Assembly: GCA_050950145.1 (NCBI GenBank)
Contig: JBMNHB010000001.1
Location: 492,820-556,819 of the forward strand
Direction: 5' to 3'
From: Candidatus Dojkabacteria bacterium
Lineage (GTDB): Bacteria > Patescibacteriota > Dojkabacteria > SC72
DNA length: 64,000 bases
This document shows, piece after piece, positions 4,248-62,295 of the stretch. The notes under the pieces were generated by a model. That model ran no database searches. It saw nothing but the letters and a program-made list of their open reading frames with translations, and was not told where the DNA came from. The position numbers were made by a program, and so were the translations under genes. Every line of letters starts with the position of its first letter. The first letter of the stretch is position 1.

Positions 4248-4271
4248 ATCTTGTAGTATACCACAACACAA

Positions 4272-4294
4272 CAGGTCTGACCTAGGTCTGCCCC
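4272..4294. repeat. REP-like palindromic element (left arm of RAYT-flanking inverted repeat) CAGGTCTGACCTAGGTCTGCCCC
   Basis: Perfect reverse complement of 4808-4830. It contains the nested palindromes AGGTC-T-GACCT and GACC-TA-GGTC and abuts the mutS start region. Confidence 0.8.
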
Positions 4295-4336
4295 TAGTTA
4301 ATCTAGATTTAATAATTATGTGAGAAAATCAAAACC

Positions 4337-4792
4337 ATGAGAAAAGAAAAGGTTGAACAACTTTATAGAAGAAGTGGCTATTACCATATCTATAACCGTG
4401 GTAATAGGAAACAGGATATCTTTTTAAGAGAGAAGGATTACAAAATCTTTATAAACCTTTTGTATAAATACTTGAAAAAGAAAAGACTTTTATTAATCGG
4501 GTATTGCCTTATGCCAAATCACTTCCACTTAATAATAAAAAATGGAGCAGATGTAAGAGCAATTCCCCACTTCATGCAGTGTTTTATGACAGCTTATGTA
4601 ATGTACTTTAATCGTCATTATAAAAAAGTTGGACACTTGTTTCAGTCTCCTTTCCAAGCAAAAAGATTACCGAAGATAAGAGATCTGGAAAATGCAAAAA
4701 GATATTTAGAACTTAACCCATTTGAAGCTGGAATACCTATCCAAAAGATAGAAGAAGGATATAAATGGCTATATCTCAGAAAGGAAAAATGA
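4337..4792 (+). mobile_element. REP-associated tyrosine transposase (RAYT), IS200/IS605 TnpA-like HUH Y1 transposase, apparently intact
   Basis: 151 aa. HUH motif LMPNHFHLII and C-terminal catalytic-Tyr motif AKRYLELNPFEAG are present. It is flanked by perfect 23-bp inverted REP copies. Confidence 0.75.
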
Positions 4793-4807
4793 AAAATAAA
4801 TTAACGC

Positions 4808-4830
4808 GGGGCAGACCTAGGTCAGACCTG
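4808..4830. repeat. REP-like palindromic element (right arm) GGGGCAGACCTAGGTCAGACCTG
   Basis: Reverse complement of 4272-4294. The extended 30-mer TTAACGCGGGGCAGACCTAGGTCAGACCTG recurs at 18357-18386, and it abuts the stop codon of the pps-like gene. Confidence 0.8.
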
Positions 4831-18177: not shown

Positions 18178-18200
18178 CAGGCCTGGCCTAGGTCTGACCT
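18178..18200. repeat. REP-like element variant CAGGCCTGGCCTAGGTCTGACCT
   Basis: Four mismatches to the 4272-4294 REP. It lies 6 nt after the oxidoreductase stop codon. Confidence 0.65.
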
Positions 18201-18363
18201 TCGTTCATAACTTTTTAATCCACCCAAAAGGTCTACTACTACTACTAAGTAATTACAATATCCTATGTCTCCCTAGACCCAAAATTTTTACAAAATACAA
18301 AAGTTTGTTTCAAGGATAACTCTTAGGAAGAGGTTTGGAAGATGATTAAATATAGATTAACGT

Positions 18364-18386
18364 GGGGCAGACCTAGGTCAGACCTG
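18364..18386. repeat. REP-like element GGGGCAGACCTAGGTCAGACCTG (identical to 4808-4830)
   Basis: Exact 23-mer repeat with the same TTAACGYG prefix. It forms an inverted doublet with 18178-18200 around about 163 bp of ORF-less DNA. Confidence 0.8.
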
Positions 18387-18854: not shown

Positions 18855-21569
18855 ATGGCATTAGAATTTGAAAGCAAACAAAAAACAATTATTGGTATAC
18901 ATAACAGAAAAAATAACACCTTTTCTGTTTCAAAAAAAGATAACCCTATACCAAAAGATGAAGATCACTCAATATTCTTACTAACTAGAGATAATTTTTT
19001 TTCCATATCAACACCACAAATCAAATATCTTTTAAAAAGTAGTCCAAAATACGAAAAATTTGAAAATATTAAAAGCATTGTAATAAATACTCTTCTAATA
19101 CCTGGATTACTTATAGCAGTAACATACATTCTTAAGTTTTCATCACTCTTACAAGACTATCCACAAATTACAAAAATACTAAACCTACCCATTGTAAATA
19201 TCCTCTTTGGAATATCAATTTTTTCAATCTTGCTTCTTTGGCATGATTTCTGGGGAGATAGGAATGAACAAATTAATCTTCCTAAAATAAAGAAAATCTC
19301 TCAAAAAGATTTAGATGAAATCAATACTGTTGGTTTTAAATTTGGTAGATATGCAAATTTAGACACTGTAAACTACATCTCTTCAGAGACAATACATTTA
19401 CTATCTGATTTCTGTATTAATGAAACCTTTAAAACCCATACTTGTTACAGCACCCTAATTAAAGAGAGTTTTGAAATACAGCAGATTCTTAGAAGAAGTG
19501 GACTTGAATCATACGAAGAGAAGCTAAAAGAAGCGAGAATTACAGACAAAGAGGTAAATAATTTTGACTTTACATCAATTAGAGGATTGCTTATTTACGC
19601 CTTAGAAGAAGCACTACTAACTGAAAGTAAACGTATTGAACCCCAACACATATTCTTGGCAATTACAAAAATCAATCCTTCTATACAAAAACTATTACAA
19701 AAAGAGAATCTAAATATAGATATCCTCAGAGAGGTCGTTAAATACCATAATTTCTTAATTCAAAGGAGAGCAAAACCATTAGATCCCGACATCCCATACT
19801 ACCGAAAAGGGGGTATAGGAAAAGCTTGGATTTACGGATGGACTTTCATTCTTGGACACTTCAGTAAAGAAGTTAATAAAACAATTGCAAGCTCAAAAGA
19901 TATTTTTGGAATAGGACATGATGAAGAAGTAGAAAGTTTAGTCTCAACATTGGGTAAAGTTACAAACAAAAATGCGTTATTAATAGGAGAACCAGGTGTT
20001 GGGAAATCTAGCATTATTCTCGGATTAGCACAAAGAATTAATAGGGGTGATGTACCCATTCAATTAAAAGATAAAAGAATTATAGAATTAGACATTAATG
20101 CTCTAATTGCACAATCACAAAATACAGGAAATCTAGAAGAATTAATTATCAAAGCTATGACTGAGTTAGCAAAAGCAGGAAATACAATTCTTTACATAGA
20201 TGAGATACAACAGATAATACCTGTAAAAGCAGCAGAGAGTGGACATAGTATAGCAGGAATAATGCTACCATATATATTAAATAGCCAATTCCCAATAGTT
20301 GGAAGTATTAACTACGCTGATTACAAGAAATATTTTTACACAAACGAATCTCTAAGACAGAGTTTTACAAACATAGAAACCAAAGAAATTTCTGCAGCAG
20401 ATGCTTTAACAATCCTAGAAAGTAAAATACCATCATTAGAGAGTAACTTTAATTGCTTTGTAACATTTCCAGCCCTTTTTGCAGCAGTAGAAGTCTCTCA
20501 GAGATATATTAGAGACAGAAAGTTGCCAAGTAGTGCAGTGCAAACTATAGAAGCAACATGTTCGTGGGCACAAGCAAATGGAATAAACAAGATTACAGCT
20601 GAACATGTGTCAAAAGCAATTTCTATACAAAGAAATATTAACATCGCAGAAATTGATCAAGATGAAAGTAATAAATTGATGAAGTTAGAAGAAAATATAA
20701 AGAATAAGATTGTAGGACAGGATGAAGCTGTAACTGCAATATCCGAAGCATTAAGAAGAGCAAGAGCAGATATTAGGAATCCAAACAAACCAATAGGTTC
20801 TTTCCTATTCATTGGTCCAACTGGTGTAGGTAAAACATATCTAGCAAAAGTAGTAGGAGAAGAATATTTCGGATCACAAGATACAATTATAAGATTAGAT
20901 ATGTCTGAGTACCAAGAAGTTTCAAGTATTAATAAATTTTTAGGAACATCCGAAGGCGATAGTCTGCTAGGAGTAACAGAGATTTCACTAATAGATAGAA
21001 TTAAGAGAAATGCCCATACAGTGGTTCTTTTTGACGAAATTGAAAAAGCACATCCAGACATTCTAAATCTTTTCCTACAGATCTTTGATGAAGGTAGGTT
21101 AACCAGTACTCAAGGAGAAACAGTTGATTTCACACATTCAATCATTATCTGTACAAGTAATATTGGAAGTAAGATACTTCTAGATTCCCTTAACGAACCC
21201 AACATTATATGGGAAGAAGTAAAAGAAAGAGTTCTATTAGAATTAAGACAATTAATGAAGCCAGAACTAATTAACAGATTTGATGATATTATTGTTTTCC
21301 AACCACATGATACAAGTAACCTATCTGAAATAGCAGTATTAGAATTAAACCAACTAGCAAAGAGATTAGCAGAAAAAGAAATAACCATTAAGTGGTCAGC
21401 TCAAATTCCAATGCTAATTGCAAATAAATCAAATGAACCAGGAATGGGTGCAAGACCAATGAAGAGATATATCCAAGATAATATAGAAGGGCAAATTGCA
21501 AAAGGAATAATTGAGCAGACAATAAAGCCCGGAGAGGAGATTGAAATCAAGGAAAGCTGGATAACATAA
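18855..21569 (+). CDS. Clp/Hsp100 AAA+ ATPase (ClpC/ClpA-like) with unusual N-terminal transmembrane extension
   Basis: D1 has GEPGVGKSSIILGLAQRI plus ILYIDEIQ. D2 has LFIGPTGVGKTYLAKVV, RLDMSEYQE and VVLFDEIEKAHPD. A Clp_N-like repeat region is present. Two predicted TM helices lie at about aa 66-128. Confidence 0.75.
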   Translation: MALEFESKQKTIIGIHNRKNNTFSVSKKDNPIPKDEDHSIFLLTRDNFFSISTPQIKYLLKSSPKYEKFENIKSIVINTLLIPGLLIAVTYILKFSSLLQDYPQITKILNLPIVNILFGISIFSILLLWHDFWGDRNEQINLPKIKKISQKDLDEINTVGFKFGRYANLDTVNYISSETIHLLSDFCINETFKTHTCYSTLIKESFEIQQILRRSGLESYEEKLKEARITDKEVNNFDFTSIRGLLIYALEEALLTESKRIEPQHIFLAITKINPSIQKLLQKENLNIDILREVVKYHNFLIQRRAKPLDPDIPYYRKGGIGKAWIYGWTFILGHFSKEVNKTIASSKDIFGIGHDEEVESLVSTLGKVTNKNALLIGEPGVGKSSIILGLAQRINRGDVPIQLKDKRIIELDINALIAQSQNTGNLEELIIKAMTELAKAGNTILYIDEIQQIIPVKAAESGHSIAGIMLPYILNSQFPIVGSINYADYKKYFYTNESLRQSFTNIETKEISAADALTILESKIPSLESNFNCFVTFPALFAAVEVSQRYIRDRKLPSSAVQTIEATCSWAQANGINKITAEHVSKAISIQRNINIAEIDQDESNKLMKLEENIKNKIVGQDEAVTAISEALRRARADIRNPNKPIGSFLFIGPTGVGKTYLAKVVGEEYFGSQDTIIRLDMSEYQEVSSINKFLGTSEGDSLLGVTEISLIDRIKRNAHTVVLFDEIEKAHPDILNLFLQIFDEGRLTSTQGETVDFTHSIIICTSNIGSKILLDSLNEPNIIWEEVKERVLLELRQLMKPELINRFDDIIVFQPHDTSNLSEIAVLELNQLAKRLAEKEITIKWSAQIPMLIANKSNEPGMGARPMKRYIQDNIEGQIAKGIIEQTIKPGEEIEIKESWIT

Positions 21570-21653
21570 CTGAAATTAACTTAAACCGACCTATAAGAAG
21601 ATTAAAATTCTATTAAATATACAGATAAACATATACTAGAAAAGAATAAACTA

Positions 21654-21698
21654 ACAGACCTGGTCTGTCTTGAAAAATATTGATATATAAAATATAAT
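21654..21698 (+). promoter_or_regulatory. Palindrome ACAGACCtGGTCTGT followed after 1 nt by a sigma70-like promoter TTGAAA-17-TATAAT for the rpmF operon
   Basis: Palindrome 21654-21668, -35 at 21670-21675, 17-nt spacer, -10 at 21693-21698. rpmF ATG at 21728. Confidence 0.6.
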
Positions 21699-39208: not shown

Positions 39209-41936
39209 AAAAACAATACAAGAGAATACAGATACGATAGAGCAGAACTCCTCATTTAAATCCGGAGAGATTAGTAATAGGTCAATTGTAGATGAGATGA
39301 AAGGTAACTACCTTGACTACTCCATGTCCGTAATCGTATCAAGAGCACTACCAGAAGTAACAGATGGTCTAAAACCATCACAGAGAAGAATTCTTGTTGC
39401 AATTAATGACTTAGGTCTAACACCTTCATCACACTTTAGAAAATGTGCAAAGATTGCAGGTGATACTTCAGGTAACTATCACCCACACGGTGAAGCTGTA
39501 GTGTATCCAACCTTAGTAAAAATGGCTCAGGACTTCTCCATGAGATATCCATTAGTAGATGGACAAGGTAACTTTGGTTCCATTGACGGAGATGAAGCTG
39601 CAGCTATGAGATACACAGAAGCAAGAATGGGGAAGATTACACCAGAATTAATCTCTGAGCTAAACAAAGGTACTGTCACTTTCGTACCTAACTATGATGG
39701 AACAAGATTAGAACCAACAGTACTACCTGCAGGTTTTCCAAATGTACTAGCAAATGGAGGAGATGGAATTGCAGTAGGTATGGCTACAAAAATACCTCCT
39801 CATAACCTAACAGAACTAATCAATGCTTTACAAAAAATGATTTCCCTAGGTAACAAATGGGAAGGTAAAGCAGTATATGATGAATTAAGAAAACAGAAAG
39901 AGAAAGGTGAGAGAATCCCACAATTACTTAATGCACAACCAGCAGATTATTTAGAAAATTACATAAAGACTGAAGATGCTACTAACCAAGAAGTTCTTGA
40001 TACTCTAAGAGCAAAGATAGAAGAAGATGGAAATGTCCTCTATCCTGAATTTAAGTCAAACATTACACCAGAAGAGTTAGTTGAGATAATACCTGGCCCA
40101 GACTTCCCAACAGGGGCAACAATATACAACAGAGAAGAAATCTTAAATACATATGCAACTGGAAGAGGAAGAATACTACAAAGAGCAAAAGCATCCATAG
40201 TAGAAGGCAAACAAGGAAAATACCAAATTGTCATCACAGAGATACCTTTCCAAGTAAATAAAGCAAACCTCATTACCAAGATTGCTGACTTGGTAAAGGA
40301 TAAAAAGATTAAGGGTATTTCTGACATTATAGATGAATCCAATATTGAAGGAATGAGAGTTGTTGTATATCTCAAGAGAGATGCACAACCAAAAGCAGTT
40401 TTAAACAAGCTCTACAAATACACAGAGATGCAGAAGGTTTTTAATGCAAATATGATTGCATTGGTAGAGAAAGAGCCAAAGACATTACCTCTTAAAAGAT
40501 TCTTAGAACTCTTCCTCTCATTTAGATTAGTAGTAACAATAAGGAGATTTGAATTTGATTTAGCACAAGCAAGATACAGATCTCACATCTTAGAAGGATT
40601 ACTTAAAGCAATTGATATGCTTGACGAGGTCATTGCTACTATTAGAGGTTCAAAAACTCAAGAAACAGCAAAAACCAACTTAATGGACAAGTTTGACTTT
40701 ACAGAAGTACAGGCACAGGCAATCTTAGATATGCAGTTAAGGAGATTAGCAGCACTTGAGAGATTGAAATTACAAGATGAACAGAAAGAGTTGAAAGAGA
40801 AGATTAAAGAGTTAAATACACTTCTAGAAGATCCAACAAAGATGTTAGAGGTTGTAGATGCTGATCTTGAGATAATTAAAGAGAAGTTTGGAGATGAAAG
40901 GAGAACAAAGGTTGTTAAAGGTAAGGTTGATGAGATTTCAGAGGAGGATATGGTTGCTTCAGAGGATACTCTTGTAACAATTACTAATTCTGGATATGTA
41001 AAGAGATTAAGTCCAAATACATACAAGGCACAGAATAGGGGAGGCAAGGGTGTCTCTGGAGGAGAGACAAAGGAAGGTGATTTTGTAGAACATGCATTCT
41101 TGTGTAATACTCATGATGAACTATTACTTTTCACAAACAAAGGTAAGGTATATACACTACGAATATTTGAGATTCCAGATTTAGGTAGGACAGCAAAAGG
41201 ATTACCTCTTGTTAATCTTGTACAACTAGACCCTGAGGAGCTTGTAACTTCTGTATTAACTAGAGATCCAAAAGGAAAGATTGCTGAAGGAAAGAGTACA
41301 GAGGAAGCTAAAGAGAAAGAAACAACAAGAGAGTACAAATATCTCTTGATGGCAACAGAGAATGGTGTTGTAAAGAAAACAGCTCTTCCTGAATTTAAGA
41401 AGATTAGAGCTAATGGGTTAACAGCAATTAAACTAGATGCAGGTGACCAATTGATAGGGGTGAAAGCTACTACTGGTGATGATCAAGCAATTATCCTAAC
41501 AAGAGAAGGTAAGTCCGTAAGGTTTAAAGAAACAGATGTTAGACCTATGGGTAGAAGTACAAGAGGGGTAACAGGTATTAAGTTTAGAAGTAAAGAGGAT
41601 AGGGTAGTTGGTATTGGAATTGTAGAGAGTGATGAGCAGCAACTTCTCACTCTTTCAGAGTATGGTTACGGTAAGATGACAGCACTTAAGGAGTATGCAA
41701 CTCAAAAAAGAGGTGGTACAGGTATCTTTACATTTAGAGTAACACCTAAAACAGGTAATGTGGCTTGTGCAAGAATTCTGAGAGAAGAAGATGAAGAGAT
41801 TGTTGTAATATCTGAGAAATCTAAGGTTATAAGGGCAGATCTTAAGGATGTACCAAAGTTAAAGAGGCAGACTTCAGGTGTAAAGATGATGAATATCGCA
41901 AGTGGTGATAGAGTAGCAACAGTTGCTATCCTCTAA
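39195..41936 (+). CDS. gyrA: DNA gyrase subunit A
   Basis: YSMSVIVSRALPEVTDGLKPSQRRILVA, an active-site Tyr region, and a C-terminal beta-pinwheel with GyrA-box-like repeats. Confidence 0.9.
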   Translation: MDEDKKTIQENTDTIEQNSSFKSGEISNRSIVDEMKGNYLDYSMSVIVSRALPEVTDGLKPSQRRILVAINDLGLTPSSHFRKCAKIAGDTSGNYHPHGEAVVYPTLVKMAQDFSMRYPLVDGQGNFGSIDGDEAAAMRYTEARMGKITPELISELNKGTVTFVPNYDGTRLEPTVLPAGFPNVLANGGDGIAVGMATKIPPHNLTELINALQKMISLGNKWEGKAVYDELRKQKEKGERIPQLLNAQPADYLENYIKTEDATNQEVLDTLRAKIEEDGNVLYPEFKSNITPEELVEIIPGPDFPTGATIYNREEILNTYATGRGRILQRAKASIVEGKQGKYQIVITEIPFQVNKANLITKIADLVKDKKIKGISDIIDESNIEGMRVVVYLKRDAQPKAVLNKLYKYTEMQKVFNANMIALVEKEPKTLPLKRFLELFLSFRLVVTIRRFEFDLAQARYRSHILEGLLKAIDMLDEVIATIRGSKTQETAKTNLMDKFDFTEVQAQAILDMQLRRLAALERLKLQDEQKELKEKIKELNTLLEDPTKMLEVVDADLEIIKEKFGDERRTKVVKGKVDEISEEDMVASEDTLVTITNSGYVKRLSPNTYKAQNRGGKGVSGGETKEGDFVEHAFLCNTHDELLLFTNKGKVYTLRIFEIPDLGRTAKGLPLVNLVQLDPEELVTSVLTRDPKGKIAEGKSTEEAKEKETTREYKYLLMATENGVVKKTALPEFKKIRANGLTAIKLDAGDQLIGVKATTGDDQAIILTREGKSVRFKETDVRPMGRSTRGVTGIKFRSKEDRVVGIGIVESDEQQLLTLSEYGYGKMTALKEYATQKRGGTGIFTFRVTPKTGNVACARILREEDEEIVVISEKSKVIRADLKDVPKLKRQTSGVKMMNIASGDRVATVAIL

Positions 41937-42005
41937 AATCCCCCATAGTAAGATTAAAAAACCTTAAAAACGATATGTTTGTTCTTTCATGACAAGGAGA
42001 AATTA

Positions 42006-42049
42006 ACAGACCAGGTCTGCTTGACAATCTTCCACTTTTAGGACATAAT
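42006..42049 (+). promoter_or_regulatory. Palindrome ACAGACCaGGTCTG followed after 1 nt by a sigma70-like promoter TTGACA-17-CATAAT upstream of abiEi
   Basis: Palindrome 42006-42019, -35 at 42021-42026, 17-nt spacer, -10 at 42044-42049. abiEi ATG at 42076. Confidence 0.6.
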
Positions 42050-42075
42050 ATGTCCCATATCTAAAAGACACAAAT

Positions 42076-46727: not shown

Positions 46728-46790
46728 GAGGGAATACTCGCCCCATATGCTTGGGGAGATGAGATTCCCTCTTTCTTTTCTAAAACTAAC
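46728..46790 (+). terminator. Nested hairpin plus T-run terminating the GT2 gene
   Basis: GAGGGAAT-actcg-CCCCatatgcttGGGG-agatgag-ATTCCCTC followed by tttcttttc. Confidence 0.5.
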
Positions 46791-46821
46791 TATCAAGTTA
46801 ATATCTTTATCAAATTTTCTC

Positions 46822-46903
46822 TTGTTATTAACACAAAAAACAAGTATACTTAGCTAATAGGTTGCAGAAGAGTCATCACCAAGATAGGCTCTTCTTTTTT
46901 TTA
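46822..46903 (+). ncRNA. Promoter-hairpin-T-run module copy 1 (TTGTTA-17-TATACT, then AGAAGAG...CTCTTCT plus T8). Candidate tiny sRNA or orphan promoter/terminator unit.
   Basis: -35 at 46822-46827, -10 at 46845-46850, stem 46866-46872/46889-46895, T-run 46896-46903. It is paralogous to 47019-47100 and 47776-47857. Confidence 0.4.
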
Positions 46904-47018
46904 CATAATCAATTTCCTAATAAATACAATTATGAAATCTAGATTGACTTGATATATAAGAAATTGAAAAACTTTTCTAAAACTAACTATCAAGTTAATA
47001 TCTTTATCAAATTTTCTC

Positions 47019-47100
47019 TTGCTATTAATGTGATAACAAAGTATACTTGTATCAATAGGATTCGGGAGGGCCCTTACGAAAGTTTTGACCCTCCCATTTT
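47019..47100 (+). ncRNA. Promoter-hairpin-T-run module copy 2 (TTGCTA-17-TATACT, then GGGAGGG...CCCTCCC plus Ts)
   Basis: -35 at 47019-47024, -10 at 47042-47047, stem 47064-47070/47089-47095. It is preceded by the shared A-unit ACAATTATGAAATCTAGATTGACTT at 46926. The hairpin abuts the 3' end of the NYN gene. Confidence 0.4.
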
Positions 47101-47710
47101 ATTTCTCAATAAAACTCTTTATTCTTGAAAACTCTTTGTATTCTCTAGAATATTTTTCTTTAATAATTCTAGCAGTCTTTTTTTTATGTGAAAGAACTGC
47201 AAACCTTGTTCCCTTCTCTCTTGCATATCGAAGTAGTATCTCGAAATCTCCATCTCCAGAAAGGAGAATAAATGAATCGTACTCTGGTTCTAATCGAAGC
47301 ATATCATAGGTTAAGTCAACATCACAGTTAGCTTTTAACTTTAATCCTCTTCCTGTTCTAATATGTTTAATTGGTTTTAGTCTTAAAACATAACCAAACT
47401 CTTCTAATTTCTTGAAGAACTGTACCTTCTTAATACTTTTGTGAATCTTCTGACTGTTCTTTCCAGTCCTCTGTTTAGGTAATTTGGTCAAATACTCAAG
47501 GAGGTTCTTAATTGGATATGGGGCAGTTGATTTGATATTTGCTTCATATCCACAAGTGTCAACTCCTGAGTAATAGAAAAACTTTTTAACTTTGTATTTA
47601 CTTTTGAGGTATTCCATCAGCTTCTTAAAATCGACCCTCCAATCTTGGTCATTTGGTGTTCCATAAAACATATTTGAAGCATCGATAAAGACATAACAGT
47701 TTTTAGTCAT
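47099..47710 (-). CDS. NYN-domain (LabA/DUF88-like, PIN-related) protein
   Basis: YVFIDASNMFYG ... NCDVDLTYDMLRL ... DSFILLSGDGDFEILL. The acidic residues of NYN/LabA nucleases are conserved. Confidence 0.7.
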   Translation of the reverse strand: MTKNCYVFIDASNMFYGTPNDQDWRVDFKKLMEYLKSKYKVKKFFYYSGVDTCGYEANIKSTAPYPIKNLLEYLTKLPKQRTGKNSQKIHKSIKKVQFFKKLEEFGYVLRLKPIKHIRTGRGLKLKANCDVDLTYDMLRLEPEYDSFILLSGDGDFEILLRYAREKGTRFAVLSHKKKTARIIKEKYSREYKEFSRIKSFIEK

Positions 47711-47729
47711 ATATAGATATTACAAAACA

Positions 47730-47857
47730 ATTATGAAATCTAGATTAACTTCATATACGAGAAACTAAGATTTTCTTGTTATCAACTCAACAAACAAGTA
47801 TACTTACAACAATAGGATTCGGGGTGGCCACTCATTTTGACTGACCATCCCTTTTTT
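47730..47857 (+). ncRNA. Promoter-hairpin-T-run module copy 3 with A-unit (TTGTTA-17-TATACT, then GGGGTGG...CCATCCC plus T6)
   Basis: A-unit ACAATTATGAAATCTAGATTAACTT at 47730. -35 at 47776-47781, -10 at 47799-47804, stem 47821-47827/47845-47851 (with one G:U). Confidence 0.4.
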
Positions 47858-61560: not shown

Positions 61561-62070
61561 TTAAGAGGATGTACTATTAGCTATCTTCTTCTCCCTAGAC
61601 ACCAACACCTCTGTTGCAATTGCAATAGCTATAGCATCTGCAGCATCATCTGGCTTAGGTAACTCATCCATACCACATAACATCTTAACAGCTTCTTGTA
61701 CTTGCTTTTTATCAGCCTTACCATATCCTGTTACAGTACTCTTTACTTGTAATGGTGTCATTTCAGAAAGAGGTAAGTTAGATTGTTCTAAAGCTAAAAG
61801 AACTACACCTCTAGCCTCACCTACCGATATCGCTGTTTTTTGATTATTGTAAAAAAGAAGTGTTTCCATACCAGCATACTCTGGTTTATACTTCCTAACT
61901 AACTCTAATACATCTTGATATATCTCACATAGTCTTTCTGATACAGTAAGACCCTTTTTAGTAGTAATACAACCATAATCTAAAACATGAGGTTTTGAAT
62001 CATTATCAAACTCTACAACAGACCAACCTGTTGTAGCTAATCCTGGATCTATACCTATTATTCTAATCAT
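61561..62070 (-). CDS. ruvC: Crossover junction endodeoxyribonuclease RuvC
   Basis: MIRIIGIDPGLATTGWSVVE is the RuvC N-terminal catalytic Asp motif, and the protein is 169 aa. Confidence 0.85.
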   Translation of the reverse strand: MIRIIGIDPGLATTGWSVVEFDNDSKPHVLDYGCITTKKGLTVSERLCEIYQDVLELVRKYKPEYAGMETLLFYNNQKTAISVGEARGVVLLALEQSNLPLSEMTPLQVKSTVTGYGKADKKQVQEAVKMLCGMDELPKPDDAADAIAIAIATEVLVSREKKIANSTSS

Positions 62071-62093
62071 ACTTTATTTTACCATAAGACAAC

Positions 62094-62115
62094 CCTCAAC
62101 ACAGACCTGGTCTGT
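62094..62115 (-). promoter_or_regulatory. Palindrome ACAGACCaGGTCTGT (minus-strand reading) followed after 1-2 nt by a -35-like TTGAGG upstream of ruvC
   Basis: Palindrome 62101-62115 and -35-like at 62094-62099 (minus strand). The candidate -10 TAAAGT directly abuts the ruvC ATG, which implies a leaderless transcript or a different -10. Confidence 0.4.
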
Positions 62116-62272
62116 TGATTTTGTCTCTTCTAGAAAGCCTTTAAGGGTGTTTTTCACCACTTTTTAATCTTACTACAGGTAATAAATTCAATCAAAAGAA
62201 GATTTCTCCTAACAATATTTTATTGAAAACTGTAAAAGACAAAGAAAACATAAATGGGAGAAGGTAAAACTG

Positions 62273-62286
62273 ACAGACCAGGTCTG
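62273..62286. repeat. Palindrome ACAGACCaGGTCTG, 10 nt downstream of the yebC stop (minus strand), followed by a T-run
   Basis: Fourth copy of the CAGACCnGGTCTG motif. On the minus strand it reads CCCAGACCtGGTCTGTCAGTTTT and could be a weak terminator hairpin. Confidence 0.5.
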
Positions 62287-62295
62287 GGTTGTACC

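Follow-up and report, generated by a model that had tools for sequence, protein, structure and literature searches.

REP/REPIN-RAYT systems combine short extragenic repeats, which carry a hairpin palindrome, form inverted doublets that fold into long structures and have copies downstream of genes, with a Y1/HUH transposase gene (RAYT) that is syntenic in related genomes and has its own repeat on both sides in inverted orientation; the repeats have variants specific to individual lineages (Nunvar 2010; Bertels & Rainey 2011; Ton-Hoang 2012; PMC3116915, PMC5581495). Our literature search found no description of REP/REPIN-RAYT repeats in Candidatus Dojkabacteria. Here, we describe a 79-nt repeat unit from a 64-kb stretch of a Dojkabacteria genome (i.e., the whole stretch that was analysed, hereafter the window) that shares all of these traits, and which we consider likely to be a REP/REPIN-RAYT repeat of this group, derived from the flank of a transposase gene, RAYT-2, seen in related genomes.

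A first-pass annotation of the window had reported a dispersed palindrome in four copies, intergenic throughout, and exact matching bears this out, with CAGACCNGGTCTG occurring at 21655-21667, 42007-42019, 62102-62114 and 62274-62286 (named S1 to S4, respectively). The four occurrences of CAGACCnGGTCTG compare with an expectation of about zero; none of 100 dinucleotide-preserving shuffles of the window gave a match, and tolerating two mismatches added a single match, a REP fragment at 4267. The palindrome is a perfect 6-N-6 inverted repeat and lies between a ClpB-like AAA gene and rpmF(-nusB-rnc) at S1, between gyrA and abiEi (of an AbiEi/AbiEii pair) at S2, directly upstream of ruvC at S3, and 9 nt past the yebC stop codon at S4. 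What the annotation had overlooked is that the similarity among the sites extends 66 nt upstream of each palindrome; that is, the palindrome is the 3' end hairpin of a conserved 79-nt unit, CCYATAGTAAGATTAAAAAAC...ACAGACCWGGTCTGT, of which the window contains three full copies and a truncated one:

21590-21668, forward strand: S1, full 79-nt unit with the head CCTATAAGAAGATTAAAA (nhmmer E=7e-12)
21654-21668, forward strand: tail hairpin of S1, ACAGACCTGGTCTGT
21570-21589, forward strand: 20 extra nt, CTGAAATTAACTTAAACCGA, that arrived with S1 (the occupied spacer is ~100 nt longer than empty ones)
21670-21698, forward strand: rpmF promoter, TTGAAA-17-TATAAT, ancestral and outside the repeat
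41942-42020, forward strand: S2, full 79-nt unit (nhmmer E=5e-19)
42021-42049, forward strand: abiEi promoter, TTGACA-17-CATAAT
62101-62179, reverse strand: S3, full 79-nt unit, tail toward ruvC (nhmmer E=7e-16)
62226-62287 (about), forward strand: S4, 5'-truncated unit, tail toward the yebC 3' end (placed by alignment with L132)
62101-62287, no strand assigned: head-to-head dimer of S3 and S4 (REPIN-like), filling most of the 225-nt yebC-ruvC spacer

At both S2 and S3, the box TAGTAAGATTAAAA precedes the palindrome by exactly 61 nt; at S1 it is found with two mismatches. S1 is bounded by the stop codon of the clpB-like gene (21567-21569) and the rpmF -35 box (21670), and its extra 20 nt appear, judged by eye against positions 7910-7935 of contig 10 of the CAYPAR01 assembly, to resemble GAAATATCGATTAACTGTAACTA, which lies between the RAYT-2 start codon and the repeat copy on its 5' side. 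CAYPAR01 shares 87-95% nucleotide identity with the window and carries orthologs of both S1 and S2. S2 is wedged in between the stop codon of gyrA (41934-41936) and the -35 box of abiEi (TTGACA, 42021); it has orthologous copies in the related contigs L026, L117, L143, L212 and L215, and S3 has orthologs in L132, L172 and L180. At S4, a deletion of 49 nt between short direct repeats (AAAACTGTA) removed the head; L132 is full-length at this site. A single long hairpin is the predicted fold of the S3-S4 dimer (dG -30.8 kcal/mol vs. -16.9 for shuffles, z = -4.7), and head-to-head dimers are also present elsewhere (L084, L132, L161, L180 and L239); taken singly, the unit has a weak tail hairpin of 6 bp (-4 kcal/mol as DNA).

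The 34 non-redundant copies in related contigs align gap-free and are all intergenic; conservation runs from CCYATAG to GGTCTGT, with none in the flanks. Within close relatives the core AGACC-N-GGTCT is strongly conserved, and among the family copies examined the palindrome was never found outside the 79-nt unit. Copies number four in the 64-kb window, five in 13.5 kb of L116 and six in 20 kb of L242, and monomers outnumber dimers. A pattern scan with the palindrome plus three upstream A's returned, among the matches listed, mostly single chance ones, alongside a group of CPR assemblies of low G+C that matched many times; homologs of NusB and RuvC assign this lineage to Candidatus Dojkabacteria. 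In a scan anchored on the head box, which is blind to the tail, the units recovered among the matches listed have the same palindrome or one-base variants of it as tails; for both scans, the listed matches are mostly chance ones in unrelated taxa and their counts do not represent genome-wide frequencies.

The head and tail of the monomer are unrelated, so that terminal inverted repeats are absent; no target-site duplication is visible at S1 relative to the empty orthologous sites, and no target-site signature or clean insertion boundary is definable from the copies compared (e.g., S1 has its 20 extra nt). No GTAG/CGTC tag precedes the stem on its 5' side, where the bases are TCTA, TGTA, CTAA, TTAA or TCAA, and where GTAG does occur, in some copies, it is 3' of the stem and on the other strand. 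The repeat was probably mobile once; the window copies have divergent middles, and copies of the family persist at orthologous sites across genera (L008/L096 and L024/L019), so that any recent mobility in the window lineage is putative.

Other ways of reading the unit were also explored. RNAalifold on 19 copies, on both strands, returned the terminal hairpin only and no covariation, an all-column pair scan gave no stacked covarying pairs, and Rfam searches at gathering and E-value thresholds gave no credible match; a structured small RNA or leader was rejected on these results. Inspection by eye revealed no start codon or open frame for a small ORF within the unit, and a DnaA-box-like TTATCC on its reverse strand was taken as chance. 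Homology of the unit head (TTTTTTAATC, reverse strand) to TTTTTAATC beside the 23-nt REPs of the window (below) was rejected, the two being not collinear; the 9-mer is unenriched in the window (6 found vs. 3.7 expected), and at the 23-nt REPs it derives from the 3' coding end of the local transposase gene.

The evidence for the origin of the unit comes from a second Y1 transposase. tblastn with the transposase of the window (RAYT-1, below) gave weak matches beside repeat copies in L116 and L094, and these represent RAYT-2, a Y1/HUH transposase of 148 aa with the HUH motif MPNHYHVLV and the catalytic tyrosine motif YMRDNP (HYH/HFH and Y..NP are found in both RAYTs). RAYT-2 is 35% identical to RAYT-1 and has a Pfam Y1_Tnp match at 5.9e-9; of the NCBIfam models, REP_Tyr_transpos fits it best, with scores of 35 bits for RAYT-2 and 44 for RAYT-1, below the curated cutoff of 80; two of its homologs are named RayT by JGI. 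In CAYPAR01 contig 10, L116 and L242, RAYT-2 is bracketed by two inverted 79-nt units with their hairpins outward and has a RimK-like gene as neighbour. The arrangement in the first two is as follows:

CAYPAR01 contig 10, 7832-7916: repeat
CAYPAR01 contig 10, 7958-8404: RAYT-2 ORF
CAYPAR01 contig 10, 8394-8477: repeat
L116, 206-289: repeat
L116, 279-725: RAYT-2 ORF
L116, 769-852: repeat

The final codons and stop of RAYT-2 (..S L P *, CTCCCATAG) are the head box CCCATAG of the downstream unit, with the stop codon being the TAG of that box. The L242 homolog, 66% identical, is flanked alike, and most of the units in this contig have the tail CCGATCAGGTCTG, which is a poor hairpin and shows that perfect pairing is not always kept. 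The flanks of the L243 homolog (48% identical) have the same architecture with a different palindrome, CCAACCAGGTTGG, which departs from that of the window by two compensatory double substitutions. The hairpin arms seen with different RAYT-2 homologs (CAGACC/GGTCTG, CCGATC/GGTCTG and CCAACC/GGTTGG) make a small natural test set for the specificity of RAYTs toward their hairpins. A RAYT gene bracketed by inverted units, together with REPIN dimers, is the anatomy by which RAYT/REPIN systems are defined (PMC5581495, PMC3733652), and RAYT-2 and the dimers described above reproduce it. The tblastn search with RAYT-1 found no RAYT-2 gene in the 64-kb window; we infer its presence in the window's own genome from the relatives at 87-95% nucleotide identity.

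As for the genomic setting of RAYT-2, in two more distant Dojkabacteria assemblies a homolog occupies the same position, within the ribosomal-protein gene cluster, where it is flanked by adk and secY and oriented on the opposite strand (L243 8067-8522 and L244 10001-10465).

The window does encode a RAYT of its own, with its own repeat:

4273-4829, forward strand: RAYT-1 locus, with the Y1/HUH transposase gene at 4337-4792 (Pfam Y1_Tnp 5e-9)
4273-4295 and 4807-4829: inverted 23-nt REPs (GGGGCAGACCTAGGTCAGACCTG) flanking RAYT-1
18178-18386, no strand assigned: inverted pair of 23-nt REPs lacking a RAYT gene; it represents the REPIN of the RAYT-1 system and is also conserved in L031 and L234

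The best NCBIfam match of RAYT-1 is likewise REP_Tyr_transpos (43.7 bits; cutoff 80), and RAYT-1 is also flanked by its own distinct REP in L096. We take RAYT-1 and the 23-nt REP to be a separate but related REP system and not the cognate of the 79-nt unit, and the two systems are probably old paralogs because their hairpins share heptamers. In L096 (Dojkabacteria UBA5232), the RAYT-1 gene stands between its REPs (2281-2840), and the orthologous site of CAYPAR01 (L008, 2338-2545) has the REP doublet only, a comparison that points to loss of the RAYT gene leaving a REPIN behind.

A few further repeats were noted near RAYT-1 and elsewhere in the window. A motif of ~35 nt with AATCTAGATT (AGTTAATCTAGATTTaATAATT) lies upstream of RAYT-1 (4296-4330) and recurs at 46923-46963 and 47716-47764, on either side of an NYN-domain gene (47099-47710), and TTAATCTAGATTTAAT is also found upstream of the L243 RAYT homolog; the shared motif may be a common promoter or operator. 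The NYN-domain gene was considered as a candidate transposase and is not one. It is surrounded by three direct repeats of 77 nt (46775-46851, 46972-47048 and 47729-47805) that are 61-90% identical to the reference copy and each end in CAAGTATACTT.

Comparison of orthologous spacers shows how the promoters relate to the repeat. The clpB-rpmF spacer measures 158 nt where the unit is present (window, L031 and L234) vs. 59-65 nt without it in L235, L236 and L237 (whose NusB is 81%, 75% and 67% identical, respectively), and these three element-free relatives keep TTGAAA-17-TATAAT, which begins 1-8 nt past the stop codon of the upstream gene. In the window, CAYPAR01 and L234, ~100 extra nt lie exactly between this stop codon and the -35 box. 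Since the same rpmF promoter is present in unit-free relatives, the promoter is older than the insertion. Similarly, the yebC-ruvC spacer spans 225 nt in the window, where it holds the dimer, and 74 nt, repeat-free, in L239, which has a dimer at another locus; the 79-nt unit is absent from this spacer in both L239 and L238. The spacer is variable more generally, with one to five small genes of unknown function replacing the dimer in relatives:

L240, 7282-9995: small genes in the yebC-ruvC spacer
L241, 8899-9948: small genes in the yebC-ruvC spacer
L238, 9514-9858: small-gene occupant of the yebC-ruvC spacer

According to the first-pass annotation, three of the palindromes abut a -35-like hexamer. 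This holds for S1 and S2; at S3 a TTGAGG is present but is unlikely to be a real -35 because no more than 12 nt separate it from the extended -10, TGGTAAAAT, which is conserved. The tail of S4 faces the yebC 3' end and no promoter. Across the family, -35 or -10 boxes are located 1-20 nt from the palindrome and start codons 22-216 nt from it, an extended -10 follows immediately after the palindrome in L070 and L090, and tails face gene or tRNA 3' ends in S4, L039, L079, L094 and L111.

Two observations concern these promoters themselves. ruvC appears to be transcribed from its extended -10 (window 62068-62084, minus strand), which is 5 nt before the ATG, a geometry kept in L180, and the ruvC mRNA is probably leaderless. 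At abiEi-abiEii, a palindrome of another kind (GGACAT-AAT-ATGTCC, 42041-42055) overlaps the -10 box (CATAAT) and could plausibly be an autoregulatory operator for the AbiEi antitoxin, AbiEi being called from a weak NCBIfam match with the AbiEii toxin identified beside it.

The explanation that we favor, and deem likely, is that the unit belongs to a REP/REPIN-RAYT system. It would have originated as the flank of RAYT-2, a domesticated Y1 (HUH) tyrosine transposase gene, from which gene-less copies, as head-to-head dimers (REPINs) and as monomers, would have spread into intergenic spacers. By analogy with RAYT and IS200/IS605 enzymes that have been characterised, RAYT-2 (rather than RAYT-1, which we take not to move this unit) would recognise the hairpin on single-stranded DNA and then cut and rejoin beside it, copying the unit to new sites. 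The spacers of these genomes, at ~60-75 nt, offer little beyond promoter and leader; the few bases between stop codon and -35 would be the tolerated slot, and the window copies would touch -35 boxes because this slot lies between the upstream stop codon and the -35. The idea that the repeats were "seeded next to promoters" is better explained by such insertion tolerance in very short spacers. More generally, promoter-abutting repeats may merely occupy the sole free slot between a stop codon and a -35 box, and should be read with this in mind.

Two hypotheses had been offered for the palindrome by the first-pass annotation, and neither stands as it was worded. Under the first, a dimeric transcription factor binds the palindrome as its operator and jointly controls rpmF-nusB-rnc, abiE and ruvCAB, always from the same place immediately before the -35; the perfect symmetry of the palindrome, the strong conservation of its core in close relatives and the three window copies located 1-2 nt upstream of a TTG-containing hexamer would all suit such a role. 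However, the palindrome always lies inside the 79-nt unit, the next promoter box is anywhere from 1 to 20 nt away (or an extended -10 comes directly after, as in L070 and L090), the tails of S4 and of the four relatives' copies listed above point at the 3' end of a gene or tRNA, three palindrome-free relatives have an intact rpmF promoter, and the ruvC promoter is an extended -10 at a different spacing. An operator or UP-element module was rejected on this variable geometry and on the empty orthologous sites; we find co-regulation by a dimeric factor very improbable, which removes the false lead of a hidden regulon joining ribosomal, RNase III, AbiE and RuvCAB promoters. The second hypothesis, that of a REP derivative spread by a RAYT, was correct in kind but not in detail, since the element is a 79-nt unit and not a 13-bp mini-REP. 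Nor is its source the 23-nt REP of the local RAYT, of which the unit is no shortened copy; the apparent cognate is the RAYT-2 paralog. The palindrome arms do share words with the 23-nt REP, as had been noticed (heptamers CAGACCT and AGGTCTG), and the two systems co-occur in the window, CAYPAR01 and UBA5232 (L096), both of which could speak for mobilisation of the unit by RAYT-1 (4337-4792) instead of RAYT-2. Yet in both the window and L096 the flanks of RAYT-1 are a distinct REP, and this REP forms doublets of its own; it is RAYT-2 that the 79-nt unit flanks and whose stop codon it contains; the shared heptamers, with ~1-2% chance expectation by our own estimate, are suggestive only, and we regard RAYT-1 as a highly doubtful mobiliser.

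A different possibility is that the unit is primarily a host element of transcript ends, its hairpin acting as terminator, 3'-end stabiliser or insulator, with the REPIN origin being secondary. In most monomers, the head begins -11 to 35 nt past the stop of a co-oriented upstream gene; tails that face convergent genes are -2 to 10 nt from the stop, with T-rich TAGATTTATCC after the hairpin; and a terminator scan flags S3 on the plus and S4 on the minus strand (2 found vs. 0.1 expected). The retention of copies at orthologous sites across genera fits as well, and REPs elsewhere are mostly downstream of genes and are thought to be RNA elements (PMC3733652). On the other hand, the 6-bp hairpin (-4 kcal/mol) is weak for this purpose and has no U-tract after it in the common orientation, relatives do without the unit at the same spacers, and a terminator leaves unexplained the ~60 conserved nt, including the head box, that the RAYT-2 flank explains. 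We therefore consider this origin improbable. Somewhat less so, albeit still unlikely in our view, is co-option of a REPIN population by the host, in which units kept in one orientation mark or insulate transcript boundaries between co-directional genes. About 11 unique loci are co-oriented with the neighbouring genes vs. 2-3 opposed, and this bias hints at host selection, since pure selfish spread would not predict it. If co-option were true, the unit would give the upstream gene a hairpin at its 3' end or stand as a barrier ahead of the promoter that follows, and the two RAYT/REPIN lineages would be long-term, vertically inherited partners of a genome of ~1 Mb or smaller. Any effect of the 79-nt unit on its host is putative.

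Among known elements, Correia elements (Neisseria) and MITEs such as ERIC, RUP and BOX are similar in being ~80-150 nt long, intergenic and near promoters or gene ends, and Correia, ERIC, RUP and BOX elements are able to influence transcription. Correia elements are bounded by 26-bp terminal inverted repeats, duplicate a TA and carry promoter boxes of their own, unlike the 79-nt monomer, which is without terminal inverted repeats and next to a -35 (that of rpmF) that predates the insertion; of the terminal inverted repeats and target-site duplication that classically identify MITEs, the former are absent from the monomer and the latter is not visible at S1. With IS200/IS605 and the gene-less PATEs, the system shares a Y1 HUH transposase, subterminal hairpin ends and no obvious target-site duplication. 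In IS200/IS605, however, the hairpin ends are in direct orientation on one strand and the whole element is multi-copy, whereas the flanks of RAYT-2 are mutually inverted and the gene, with its RimK-like neighbour, seems to occupy a single, syntenic locus. The closest likeness is to REP/REPIN-RAYT systems, as outlined at the beginning, and our results document such a system in Candidatus Dojkabacteria (CPR), with a unit that is unusually long and asymmetric and includes the stop codon of its transposase. Classical REPs are 20-40 nt, while the unit described here is 79 nt and has its one hairpin and the RAYT stop codon at opposite ends. It further differs in that monomers are more numerous than dimers, in the RAYT scores, which are below the NCBIfam cutoff, and in having no GTAG/CGTC tag, the unpaired tetranucleotide that characterises the tagged REP superfamilies (PMC3733652). 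Finally, two RAYT/REP systems coexist here, in a CPR host whose genome is very small.
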